From: an uncultured Candidatus Saccharibacteria bacterium
GTDB taxonomy: Bacteria > Patescibacteriota > Saccharimonadia > Saccharimonadales > 2-12-FULL-41-12
Direction: 5' to 3'
Assembly (NCBI GenBank): GCA_964648105.1
Contig: CAZYMH010000002.1
Span: 1 to 52,100, forward strand
Length of the DNA: 52,100 nt
This document shows, piece after piece, positions 1 to 17,699 of this stretch. Numbering within the stretch: position 1 is the first letter of the stretch; every line of letters starts with the position of its first letter. The notes below the pieces were generated by a model. That model searched no databases. It had not been told where the DNA came from and saw only the letters and a program-made list of their open reading frames with translations. Both the position numbers and the translations under genes were made by a program.

Positions 1-1710
1 AACCTTGCTCTTTCGGTGGGCAGGATTCTCACCTGCCTTATGGTTACTCATTCCAACATTCTCACTTGATACCGCTCCACCAAACCTCGCAGTTTGACTT
101 CTACGCTGATATCAACGCTCCTCTACCACATCCCAGCATCACATTTCATAATGCTTATTTAATGTACTAATTGTACATTTCAAAATCTTCAGCATTATGA
201 AAACTGATGCTGGGACATCCATATCTTCGGTATTATGCTTAGCCCCGTTACATTTTCCGCGCAAGATCTCTTGACGAGTGAGCTGTTACGCACTCTTTAA
301 ATGAATGGCTGCTTCTAAGCCAACATCCTCGTTGTTTAAGAAATCTCACCTCGTTTCCCACTTAGCATAAATTTAGGGACCTTAGATGATGGTCTGGGCT
401 GTTTCCCTTTTGAGCGCCGATCTTCGCACCGACGTTCTAACTGCCGTAGTTCCACATGTAGTATTCGTAGTTTGTCAAGGGTGGGTACACTTGCGTGCCC
501 CAGTCCGAAACAGAGCTCTACCCCTACATGCTACCGTACGACGCTAGCCCTAAAGCTATTTCGAGGAGAACCAGCTATCTCCAGGTTCGATTGGCATTTC
601 ACCGCTAACCACAGGTCATCCAAGCGTTTTGCAACTCGCCCTGGTTCGGCCCTCCACGACGTTTTACCGTCGCTTCAGCCTGCCCATGGTTAGGTCACCT
701 GGTTTCGGGTCTACCATACATGATTCAAATCGCCCTATTCAGGCTCGCTTTCACTATGCGTCCGTCAGATGACTTACGCTTACCATGTACGGTAACTCGT
801 TGGATCGTTCTACAAAAAGCACCCCGTCACCCTGCATGAGACAAACCTGCGGTTTTTCTCATCGCTTCGCTGCTCTTTTCCCTAAAGCAGACAAATTTAT
901 CCGAAATAAATTCAGATAAATTTGAATTAAAATAATTCAAAACAATAAAAAAGACAGATTTACCTAATGCAAGGCTCCGAGTCCTTGTATGCACATAATT
1001 TCAGGTTCTATTTCACTCCCCTTCCGGGGTTCTTTTAACCTTTCCCTCGCGGTACTTGTTCTCTATCGATCATAAGATATATTTAGCCTTAGGAGGTGGT
1101 CCTCCTAGATTCAAACAGGGTTTCTCGTGTCCCGTCCTACTCGACACTAAAAGATATTAATAAATCAATATCTTTCTCAGCAAAAATGCTGACACAAATA
1201 TAAGGTTAGCGATACTTAATGTACTAGGCTTTCACTATCTATGGCCTGACTTTCCAGACAGTTCCACTCGCTTCGCTAATTTCTGACCTTATGCAGGATA
1301 ATGGTAGCTCCTGCCTCCAAAACGGAAACCTGGATAATTCCAGAACTCCGTCTTGACTGTTTGTGATGTCACAACTCTCTTTAAATATTCGTCTACCAAC
1401 TTATTTGCCTAAATTAATAGGCAAAAACTTAAAAAGTTTGGGCTATTCCAATTTCGCTCGCCACTACTCTCGGAATCGTTGTTTACTTTCTCTTCCTCAG
1501 GGTACTAAGATGTTTCAGTTCCCCTGGTTACCGCCTCATAATCTATGTATTCAATTATGGGTGCATAGGTATGAATCTATGCGGGTTTCCCCATTCGGAT
1601 ATCTACGGATCAAAGCTTGTTTGGCAGCTTCCCGCAGCTTTTCGCAGCCTACTACGTCCTTCTTCGGTATCTTATGTCAAGGCATTCATTATGTGCACTT
1701 GAGTAACTTT
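1..1710 (-). rRNA. rrl: 23S rRNA, 5' ~1.7 kb (gene runs off the window start)
   Basis: The reverse complement carries conserved 23S blocks: GGATGTTGGCTTAGAAGCAGCCAT (305-328), GACCCGAAACCAGGTGA (695-711) and GTACCGCGAGGGAAAGG (1039-1055). The 5' end ...CACATAATGAATGCCTTGAC lies at about 1680-1710. ORFs 472-693 and 1363-1737 lie inside it and are spurious. Confidence 0.93.
131..215 (-). other. 85-nt perfect-stem hairpin insertion (expansion segment) inside 23S
   Basis: Nested inverted repeats: tcccagcatca (131-141) pairs with tgatgctggga (205-215), tttcataatgct with agcattatgaaa, and aatgtac with gtacatt. Conserved 23S sequence flanks both sides. The position corresponds roughly to E. coli helix 45 (aligned from memory). 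Confidence 0.7.
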
Positions 1711-2067
1711 TTACGTTACAGAAAACAAAAATTATAAAAATTAATGTTTTCTTATGATTCTAAAAATAATTTAGAATTTGCATTGACTAGTTATTGGTAT
1801 TCACTAAATTTAATAAAATAATGAACTCAATAACAGATGTCGTTTATTTACTATAATCTTAAAATTCCTGGTTTTAAGATTATTTTTTTGTATCTGTATA
1901 TTCTACAGATACTATGTCAGCCAAATTTTTAAGTTGCAAAACTCAGTTGTCTGATTAAAGTACGTAAATTTACAGTACCCTAATTCAGTCCTCATAAAAT
2001 GCCGAGTTTACGTTTTGAAGCTTGCTAATCTTAGCTCCACGACCTAAACTCGAGAGACCTAGAAACA

Positions 2068-2096
2068 ATCATATCAATAATAACAGATTAGGTCAA
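2068..2096 (-). promoter_or_regulatory. Predicted sigma70-type promoter about 350 nt upstream of the 23S 5' end
   Basis: Minus strand reads TTGACC (2091-2096), a 17-nt spacer, then TATGAT (2068-2073). Confidence 0.4.
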
Positions 2097-2159
2097 GCAT
2101 ATTATGGTGTCAAAAAAACTACATATCGATAAGAGATTGGCAATACCAAAAACAGCTAT

Positions 2160-2948
2160 TTATGAATGCATGGCACTAATATAGGCCACCCATGCTTCAT
2201 CACTAACTTTACTGGCCGATCTAATCGTAATTAACAGGTTGCCCTTTATAAAAATCAAGCTCTGAACTCCTTTTACAGACTGTCCACTATAAACATTGAC
2301 TCCGTCTACTTGAATTAAGTTGGTTTGGTTATTAGATTTAGCAGTTTTTTCCAGTTCATTAGCTTGGTTGTTTTTTAGATTATCTGGTATTTCTTGTTGT
2401 GTGACATTAATCTGAACACCAGCAATAGAGTCAATATAAGTATAGGCGGCTGGTTGGTTAGGTGGGCTAATTTTTACTATTTTACCAATATTTTCGCTGT
2501 TTTTACTGCCGGGGTATAATATTTTGAAAGTCGGTTTTTCTTCATAAAGATCCGTGGTTTTTGAATCACTATTTTTTATAGCGACACCTGTAGACTTTGA
2601 AGATCTTTTACTAAAAAACACAAATGCAGTGGTGGATATAACGATTAAAGCAATCACCACAACTATAACCAAGGCCTTTCTGCTTAACCTAAGTCTCGAT
2701 ATTTTTTTAGAAACTCCAGTGCGTATTTTTTTTATTCTGTCGAACTGCACTTTAGGCAAAGAGAGCTTAACGTTAAGCTCAATATTTTTGTCATTTTTAC
2801 CAGTATCAAAAGAAGAGCTTTTTTGAGAAGTTTGATTAGATTTTGCTAGATCTCGCCATTCTTCATCATCGTCAAGCCAATTATCAAAACTACCTACTTT
2901 TTGATTAGTGTACTGTTTTTTCTTTGATGATCTGGGTCTAAATTCCAT
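2160..2948 (-). CDS. Hypothetical single-pass membrane protein (262 aa)
   Basis: Long ORF starting 16 nt downstream of the giant gene's stop on the same strand. One TM helix (ALVIVVVIALIVISTTAFVFF) follows a charged N-terminus. No recognisable family. Confidence 0.6.
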   Translation of the reverse strand: MEFRPRSSKKKQYTNQKVGSFDNWLDDDEEWRDLAKSNQTSQKSSSFDTGKNDKNIELNVKLSLPKVQFDRIKKIRTGVSKKISRLRLSRKALVIVVVIALIVISTTAFVFFSKRSSKSTGVAIKNSDSKTTDLYEEKPTFKILYPGSKNSENIGKIVKISPPNQPAAYTYIDSIAGVQINVTQQEIPDNLKNNQANELEKTAKSNNQTNLIQVDGVNVYSGQSVKGVQSLIFIKGNLLITIRSASKVSDEAWVAYISAMHS

Positions 2949-2964
2949 AATACTTTTTTAAGTG

Positions 2965-17309: not shown

Positions 17310-17446
17310 AAAAAAGATTGAAGGTCAAAACTGGACAAGATAAACCTATACAAGAACGCTGGCGGCCGAGGCCGACATAATTCTTGGCTTCGACAAGCGA
17401 AGCTAAGGGTTCATCCTGAGCCAGGATCAAACTCTCCAAAAAAGAT
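17281..17446 (-). repeat. Perfect 38-bp direct repeat of the 16S 5' end (17281-17318 and 17409-17446) enclosing a 90-nt spacer
   Basis: gttcatcctgagccaggatcaaactctccaaaaaagat occurs twice, read base by base. The spacer also holds an inverted copy (17354-17366) of 16S nt at 17272-17284. Confidence 0.9.
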
Positions 17447-17521
17447 GAATTTGCTCATAGCATCAGATAAATCTGACTTAATTACTATATTAAAACAATT
17501 CAATATCCTGTTATAGCACAG

Positions 17522-17553
17522 GATTGAATCGACGTTGATTTGCACTTAGTTAA
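17522..17553 (-). promoter_or_regulatory. 16S leader arm of the pre-16S processing stem
   Basis: Complementary to 15548-15576 (see that feature). Confidence 0.65.
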
Positions 17554-17624
17554 ATTTTTAACGTTCAAAATAGATCTACCTTTTTTTAGGTCAGCAAGAT
17601 AACACTCGCAAATGATCTCAATTA

Positions 17625-17653
17625 ATTCTACTTATTTTATATCTGTTTGTCAA
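17625..17653 (-). promoter_or_regulatory. Predicted 16S operon promoter
   Basis: Minus strand reads TTGACA (17648-17653), a 17-nt spacer, then TAGAAT (17625-17630), directly downstream of the gyrA stop. Confidence 0.5.
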
Positions 17654-17699
17654 CTATTTATATTGTAATAAACTCTACGACTAGAATATTGACTTTTAT

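Follow-up and report, generated by a model that had tools for sequence, protein, structure and literature searches.

A predicted cell-envelope cassette lies between the genes for 16S and 23S rRNA in a lineage of Saccharimonadales

The stretch of DNA considered here (the window) comprises 52,100 nucleotides (nt) of contig CAZYMH010000002.1 (assembly GCA_964648105.1, positions 1 to 52,100), and at its beginning lies a ribosomal RNA locus whose 16S and 23S genes are separated by three protein-coding genes, two of them giant. Judged by its sequence, the source is a Candidatus Saccharimonadales bacterium (Saccharibacteria, Candidate Phyla Radiation (CPR)/Patescibacteria); its closest GyrA relatives in the genome collection are all Saccharibacteria/Saccharimonadales metagenome-assembled genomes (MAGs), up to 82% identical, with a further locus, L093, at 86%, and the sequencing runs that contain the locus are wastewater and activated-sludge metagenomes. 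On the minus strand, where all genes and signals of the locus described below reside, the order is gyrB (20236-22200) and gyrA (17700-20234; both by Pfam), which form a conserved anchor upstream of the rRNA locus (17700-22200), then a full-length 16S rRNA gene (15714-17314; Rfam RF00177, 1466 bits), tRNA-Ala (TGC; 15393-15469), tRNA-Ile (GAT; 15242-15318; both by ARAGORN and Rfam), a gene for a 1742-amino-acid (aa) LVIVD/CBM protein, a gene for a giant Kelch-repeat protein, a gene for a 262-aa membrane protein, and the 5' part of the 23S rRNA gene, which the window edge cuts (1-1713; Rfam RF02541, positions 1-1352 of the 2925 in the model, 1088 bits). From 16S to 23S, this gene order had been proposed in a first-pass annotation made from the sequence alone, and it holds by Rfam, ARAGORN and open reading frame (ORF) calls. 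From the 3' end of 16S to the 5' end of 23S the interval spans 14,000 nt (15713 down to 1714); the spacer block of 13.5 kb put forward earlier corresponds to the distance from tRNA-Ile to 23S (13,528 nt), and its giant genes are indeed the largest ORFs in the window, the next largest encoding 987 aa. In the canonical bacterial rrn operon the internal transcribed spacer (ITS) is a few hundred nt long and carries tRNA-Ile followed by tRNA-Ala. Here a 14-kb interval with Ala before Ile is found instead, while the 16S gene retains the leader-trailer processing stem of such operons, being bracketed by an inverted repeat (I1) with 36-nt arms (trailer arm at 15541-15576, pairing with 17526-17561) that are 83% complementary. 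The flanks of tRNA-Ile are likewise complementary (U-rich and A-rich runs at 15231-15253 and 15311-15333; 23-nt arms, 91% complementary) and lengthen its acceptor stem by ~13 bp.

Independent contigs cover most of this arrangement. In Logan contigs from three wastewater runs (X1-X3), the segment 1007-15299, from inside 23S to inside tRNA-Ile, is present in one to three pieces (in X2 as a single 14,293-bp contig), with 0-3 differences from the window and a depth of 10-12. The gyrA-side contig (17409 onward) has a depth of 11-13, equal to that of the cassette; a 299-bp contig (15434-15732) links the 3' end of 16S to tRNA-Ala, and a contig from a further run, X11 (15197-15353), joins tRNA-Ile to the window's own Ala/Ile spacer. 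Contig breaks are confined to sequence common to other community members (tRNAs, rRNA), and MAG assemblies will usually break at this locus. A contig joint from 15181 to 17725 (depth 2-3) raised the prospect of a variant lacking 16S and the tRNAs; it was dropped because segment 14700-15241, on re-examination, gave only A/T-rich chance matches of ~20 nt.

What do the intervening genes encode? The first (9488-14716) specifies the 1742-aa protein, which has an N-terminal signal anchor, an LVIVD beta-propeller (Pfam, 7.6e-24, 83.2 bits against a cut-off of 20.2), two CBM_4_9 domains (3.7e-07, 31 bits; cut-off 25.9) and a conserved C-terminal region of ~800 aa. Its 284 homologues (P0016-P0134 among them) mostly match only this C-terminal ~45% (~800 aa), at 55-68% identity, whereas their N-terminal heads are swapped (LVIVD, Kelch, parallel beta-helix and other propellers), which suggests domain shuffling under diversifying selection; on this domain evidence the protein is a member of a modular, predicted envelope protein family of Saccharimonadales. 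The second gene (2965-9156, an ORF of 2063 aa) encodes the Kelch giant (Pfam Kelch_1, 9.5e-35, 118.2 bits; cut-off 20.1), with a basic N-tail, one transmembrane helix, a domain rich in Gly and several Kelch propellers that also match Kelch propellers in the PDB; its start is most likely the ATG at 9111 (2048 aa) rather than 9156, because this ATG is aligned with those of relatives, and the Logan gene call gives 2047 aa. The last cassette gene (2160-2948) encodes a 262-aa single-pass membrane protein, a member of a family of 14 proteins or clusters at 35-51% identity. It has no Pfam match; it carries one transmembrane helix, and the alpha/beta C-terminal domain of its AlphaFold2 model (pLDDT >90) finds no fold match in the PDB (best E 0.013, TM 0.26 or lower). 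PDB and NCBIfam sequence searches with the cassette proteins returned generic propeller matches only, and the literature held nothing specific on the giant proteins; some homologues bear source names such as 'S-layer family protein' or 'adhesin', which are untested annotations. N-terminal hydrophobic anchors are present in the cassette proteins, and from these and the binding-type domains we infer proteins that an epibiotic cell exposes on its surface for binding. The earlier description of the giants as surface proteins thus appears plausible for large, membrane-anchored proteins with beta-propeller and CBM domains, and in environmental Saccharibacteria the cassette is a candidate for functions in host contact.

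The same layout recurs in other species, as a comparison of the 16S-23S interval in related genomes makes clear. L093 (GCA_964609815.1, contig CAZSRV010000009.1; 16S 93.6% and GyrA 86% identical to the window) reads gyrB-gyrA-16S-tRNAAla-tRNAIle-2162-aa homologue-2141-aa Kelch homologue-252-aa homologue-23S, with an interval of 15.5 kb, and L094, a 103-kb ENA contig, shares this order except that its tRNA pair is inverted; it has one extra 250-aa ORF and an interval of 14.75 kb. In at least three further species the cassette also lies directly upstream of 23S or its leader (L084-86, L087, L088 and L090-92), and in every examined lineage but L089 the homologue of the 262-aa protein is preceded by a Kelch giant and a 1742-like giant and followed by 23S or its leader within ~400-450 nt. 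In L089 the cassette stands away from rRNA genes, and more distant homologous cassettes have other locations, following ileS-rplU in L095 and tatAC in L096. Relatives anchored by gyrA that lack the cassette have 16S-23S intervals of 1.4, 1.6, 1.8, 2.9, 4.0 and 4.5 kb, and in four more the interval exceeds 6.8-8 kb, extending past the fetched sequence; the cargo in these relatives varies and comprises pyrD, a ddl-like ATP-grasp gene, genes for an LVIVD protein and for a polysaccharide-lyase/GSDH protein of 1123 aa, and hypotheticals. Judging from these gene orders, the interval is a rearrangement hot spot in the clade. The synteny of gyrA and 16S is kept in many Saccharimonadales loci; it is not universal in the order, because the complete 840-kb Saccharibacteria chromosome OZ246406.1 (L013) has a 1206-aa ORF, not 16S, after gyrA within the 4 kb available.

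The spacer tRNAs had been described as standing in reversed order. The order itself, Ala then Ile, is confirmed by ARAGORN and Rfam, but it is reversed only with respect to the canonical operon and not for the clade, in which 13 of 14 loci have Ala before Ile once each pair is read along its own strand. In five of the 14 Saccharimonadales loci (L005, L012, L017, L031 and L094) the two tRNA genes are flipped together with respect to 16S; in L026, Ile precedes Ala on the strand of 16S, and L040 and L041 additionally carry tRNA-Val(tac).

Are the genes of this interval transcribed together or apart? A motif scan places putative promoters before 16S (TTGACA-17-TAGAAT, 17625-17653; 11/12), before the 1742-aa gene (TTGACC-17-GATAAT, 14805-14833; 10/12) and before 23S (TTGACC-17(TG)-TATGAT, 2068-2096; 10/12), as the first-pass annotation had indicated. 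Before 16S, the TTGAC core of the -35 element is invariant in nine loci (alignment A2), with a -10 element 17 nt downstream and conserved leader blocks. At the position aligned to the promoter of the 1742-aa gene, L093 has TTGCTT-17-CATAAT, and L094 has TTGACT-17-GATAAT at the corresponding place (read manually, since MAFFT misaligns L094); downstream of it, AGGTTATAAAA is conserved in the window, L093 and L094, and the start region ATGTTTCCGCAAAAACATAAA is identical (alignment A3). Between the giants, an intrinsic-terminator-like hairpin (9161-9206; inverted repeat I9, 16-nt arms 9168-9183/9191-9206, 94% complementary, 7-nt loop) is followed by a T-run and by an extended -10, TGATATAAT (9140-9148), a putative promoter of the Kelch gene. 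Both have counterparts in relatives: L093 and L088 have hairpins of other sequence with T-rich runs at roughly this location, and TGnTAnAnT is found at the position aligned to TGATATAAT in L093, L088 and L087, followed in the latter two by a GGGGAA ribosome-binding site and an ATG. The 23S promoter is retained in near-identical form, TTGACCTAATCTGTTA-N4-TGn-TATGAT recurring in the window, L093, L088, L090, L087 and L003; L017, L026 and L033 have a similar TG-extended -10 at this position, with different genes or tRNA-Ile itself as upstream neighbours. It is followed by a 23S leader of ~355 nt (1714-2067) with blocks conserved in an alignment of nine loci (A1), namely a GAGTTTAGG...CGTAAACTC hairpin, CTTAAAAATTTGGCTGAC and ACCAATAACTAGTCAATGCAA, and the same blocks occur in L087, L091 and L092. 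The conservation across species of the 16S promoter motif, the promoter of the 1742-aa gene, the terminator and extended -10 between the giants, and the 23S promoter points to separate transcription units, as had been suggested from the window by itself.

Upstream of the hairpin, just after the stop codon of the 1742-aa gene, lies a conserved, probably structured intergenic RNA element (9215-9460; alignments A4 and A6). The RNAalifold structure comprises 35 pairs, of which 16 show double changes, and two hairpins are conserved: one is an invariant GC hairpin, UCGGCGG..CCGCCGA at 9433-9413, and the second stem has compensatory changes. A long-range ACCG/CGGU pairing, in which GGCRCUACCGAA pairs with UUUGCGGU, and an A-rich tract complete the element. 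It is present in five species (by regular expression in the window, L087, L088 and L090, and as a variant in the alignment of L093), finds no match in Rfam, and could be a 3'-untranslated-region structure or an attenuator leader.

How might such a locus have arisen and how would it work? The explanation that we favour, and hold to be probable, is that the split of the rRNA locus by an envelope cassette is an inherited, stable trait of a sub-lineage, with four transcription units, and neither a recent insertion nor a chimera. A single rRNA locus of the ancestral arrangement gyrB-gyrA-16S-tRNAAla-tRNAIle-23S would have been pulled apart, so that a three-gene cell-envelope cassette (the propeller/CBM giant, the Kelch giant and the small single-pass membrane protein) would now lie between tRNA-Ile and 23S. 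The four co-oriented units that most likely result would be, first, 16S-tRNAAla-tRNAIle, driven by the 16S promoter, with 16S excised via its own leader-trailer stem; second, the 1742-aa gene under its dedicated promoter, its transcript carrying a structured 3' region and ending at the hairpin and T-tract; third, the Kelch and 262-aa genes, driven by the extended -10 promoter; and fourth, the 23S leader and 23S, driven by a dedicated, strongly conserved promoter. Independent transcription of 23S probably predates the split, because the 23S-proximal promoter-like element is also found in relatives with closely spaced 16S and 23S, and would have made the interval permissive for gene acquisition and rearrangement; the presence of the element even in those relatives suggests why the interval tolerates cargo.

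Several observations weigh against this explanation or against parts of it. The promoter and terminator calls are consensus motifs for which sigma-factor specificity in CPR bacteria is assumed, and promoter-like and terminator-like sites in positions 1-18000 occur at chance level (41 against 43.7, and 11 against 11.4, in shuffled sequence); it is only their conservation in relatives that gives the named sites weight. The motif scan gave no terminator-like site between tRNA-Ile and the 1742-aa gene, so that some read-through from the 16S promoter may reach the first giant. Four wastewater RNA-Seq runs that contain parts of the locus gave community rRNA signal only, with a depth of 0-7 on the genes and nothing on organism-specific spacers. 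As to the assembly, no independent contig covers ~80 nt at 15354-15433, which comprise tRNA-Ala's conserved half and part of the Ala/Ile spacer, the window-specific Ala/Ile spacer was not found in the X1-X3 contigs, and these contigs, otherwise identical to the window, lack a duplication at the 5' end of its 16S gene (see below). Finally, surface exposure and binding are deduced from membrane anchors and domains only.

The alternative that survives best, unlikely as we consider it, is a growth-rate-coupled super-operon, in which the giants would owe a substantial part of their expression to read-through from the strong 16S promoter through tRNA-Ile, and 23S its own to read-through from the cassette, with surface display tracking rRNA synthesis, a coupling that the first-pass annotation had raised as a question. 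All genes are co-oriented, the position of the cassette is conserved in several species, and the scan found no terminator-like site between the 262-aa gene and the 23S promoter, just as it found none after tRNA-Ile. However, promoter motifs are conserved before the 1742-aa gene, the Kelch gene and 23S, and the hairpin with its T-tract is positionally conserved between the giants. In L094, moreover, the tRNA pair between 16S and the cassette is inverted and the cassette promoter is nonetheless kept, while L089, L095 and L096 have the same cassette away from rRNA genes. The RNA runs gave no signal, and read-through coupling, for which no positive evidence was found, is disfavoured by the conservation of the internal promoters and by L094 with its inverted tRNA pair. 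A more elaborate version, to which we give little weight, would see the interval as a selected expression site, in which read-through from the rRNA promoter adds to the cassette promoter and the structured element (9215-9460) together with the hairpin at 9161-9206 acts as an attenuator that sets the ratio of the giants. Were this true, production of giant envelope proteins would be tied to ribosome synthesis, and the element would be a new cis-regulatory attenuator.

Could the cassette instead be a mobile element or genomic island recently inserted into a canonical ITS, as the earlier wording of an insertion exactly into the ITS might imply? The cargo genes are large, the GC content is locally higher (0.48 at 6-8 kb), and the cargo at this site varies among relatives. 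The higher GC, however, is explained by Gly-rich coding repeats (D1-D5); Pfam and NCBIfam find propeller and CBM domains only, and no integrase, transposase or recombinase, in the three cassette ORFs; and no pair of direct or inverted repeats brackets 2160-15241. The same architecture in species at ~93% 16S identity, and a cassette without the hallmarks of mobile elements, do not fit a singular or recent event. Rather, the arrangement appears old, because it is shared by lineages whose orthologues of the 262-aa protein are only 27-48% identical, and a recent insertion is very improbable.

Least credible of all is an assembly chimera, in which 16S-tRNA and cassette-23S fragments of different Saccharibacteria had been joined through conserved tRNA or rRNA sequence: the X1-X3 contigs do break inside tRNA-Ile (15299) and tRNA-Ala (15434) and lack the window-specific spacer, and several related Saccharibacteria in the same samples share these tRNAs, yet the depth is equal (~11-13) on the gyrA side, in the 16S-tRNAAla spacer and in the cassette, X11 ties tRNA-Ile to the window's own spacer, and, as the strongest evidence, which is comparative and makes a chimera very unlikely, L093 and L094, independent assemblies of other species, carry the identical gyrB-to-23S order. 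A chimeric join had been named in advance as a possible refutation; the even contig cover of 1007-15299, together with the other species of the same architecture, indicates instead that the split locus is real.

The rRNA genes themselves show further peculiarities. A 41-nt stretch upstream of 16S (17406-17446) is 98% identical to the 5' end of the gene (17278-17318), 128 nt away, and the duplicated stretch takes in the 27F primer site as well as 8 nt of leader. The effect is that of an insertion of ~128 nt behind 16S position ~35, equal in length to one period of the repeat and composed of the 41-nt repeat and ~87 nt of new sequence. In each of the eight relatives compared, the leader aligns with the upstream copy, and none of them has the insertion. 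With the 5' end present twice, the true 5' boundary of 16S is ambiguous. The duplication does exist in nature, because contigs from the 16S amplicon runs X23 and X24 span parts of it (17288-17415 and 17250-17381), and the duplicated 27F site can yield two V1-V3 amplicon lengths from one organism. By blastn, 16S also has an expansion of ~135 nt in the V1 region (~17099-17239), absent in most relatives and shared only with L005 and L012, and 23S, by blastn and contig joints, has expansions at ~831-973 (~143 nt) and ~128-218 (~91 nt) relative to relatives, the latter of which folds as a 25-bp hairpin (inverted repeat I3); contig joints indicate that other community members carry short loops where the window has these 16S and 23S expansions. 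Two observations in relatives also concern 23S: the L084 species has a LAGLIDADG homing-endonuclease ORF (L084 13417-13905) ~2.2 kb into 23S, probably in an rRNA intron, and the L089 cassette contains a 23S_rRNA_IVP-family ORF (L089 2975-3241).

Elsewhere in the window, five perfect copies of the DnaA-box 9-mer TTATCCACA were found where 0.7 would be expected (14806-14814, 15045-15053, 29777-29785, 42366-42374 and 42386-42394), all in intergenic DNA. The first overlaps the promoter of the 1742-aa gene, and for the site at 15045 conservation extends to L093 and, almost fully, to L094. These sites may serve a regulator. An origin of replication was ruled out: the five boxes do not group as they would in an oriC, there is no cluster of one-mismatch boxes (22 against 16.8 expected) and no GC-skew switch, and the neighbouring 502-aa ORF encodes a Mg-chelatase/ComM-like ATPase, not DnaA. 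Between the gene for this type of ATPase and ORFs for small membrane proteins lies a stretch of ~1.4 kb (28640-30053) without an ORF of 60 aa or more and without tandem repeats, whose GC content is ~25%, compared with 37-40% elsewhere.

How does the locus compare with known systems? Single traits of it have counterparts in other phyla. In Bacillus subtilis, rrnO lies downstream of gyrB-gyrA, and the same synteny of gyrA and rrn is seen here; in Borrelia burgdorferi, the cluster 16S-tRNAAla ... tRNAIle-23S has an expanded, gene-containing spacer, as the window does; and Campylobacter and Helicobacter combine Ala-Ile spacers with an unlinked 16S, the order Ala before Ile being that of the window. 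These are, however, other phyla with other cargo, and we know of no case in B. subtilis, Borrelia or the Campylobacterota with giant surface-protein genes between 16S and 23S. Borrelia and Helicobacter are both cited as cases of unlinked rRNA genes (PMC8172020; 10.1101/705046).

The closest parallels come from the CPR itself. Unlinked 16S and 23S genes, defined as more than 1,500 bp apart between the 3' end of 16S and the 5' end of 23S, are common in Patescibacteria (Brewer et al., ISME J 2020; bioRxiv 10.1101/705046), and the 14,000 nt found here exceed that distance in what is likewise a small-genome, probably symbiotic bacterium with one rRNA locus. Of 34 circularised CPR genomes, 27 had unlinked genes, the two Saccharimonadia among them that were operonic notwithstanding, and tRNAs and protein-coding genes in CPR rRNA spacers, as in the window, were explicitly described (Lui et al. 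2021, PMC8172020). Under the conservative scheme of that study the locus would be class C; it does not belong to classes D/E, in which co-transcription is impossible, as every feature of the 16S-23S interval is on the minus strand. Lying all on one strand and within 14 kb, it differs from the published unlinked cases and falls between classes C and D, and its cargo is a giant envelope cassette, not a homing endonuclease or a housekeeping gene. In Nanosynbacter lyticus TM7x, of the same phylum, pyrD and a hypothetical gene lie between 16S and 23S (PMC12424978), and L041 (16S-Ala-Ile-Val-ORF130-DHODH-23S) agrees with that description. The phenomenon, protein genes between 16S and 23S, is the same; the interval there is ~3 kb with a metabolic gene, whereas here it is 14 kb with three envelope genes, and the cargo is unrelated. 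The largest ITS in rrn-amplicon work also came from Saccharibacteria (PMC10402275), and long-amplicon methods that span 16S-ITS-23S will miss the present lineage, whose amplicon would be ~18 kb. The novelty that the first-pass annotation had attached to the split arrangement is weakened by the published unlinked CPR genes (PMC8172020; 10.1101/705046) and by pyrD in TM7x (PMC12424978). What is new are details and not a category: the giant-protein cargo and the internal promoters, both of them conserved, and a tRNA module that is inverted in relatives. The window is thus a large, lineage-conserved further example of a known phenomenon, and, being well documented across species, it extends the picture of CPR bacteria as having dismantled the rRNA operon.

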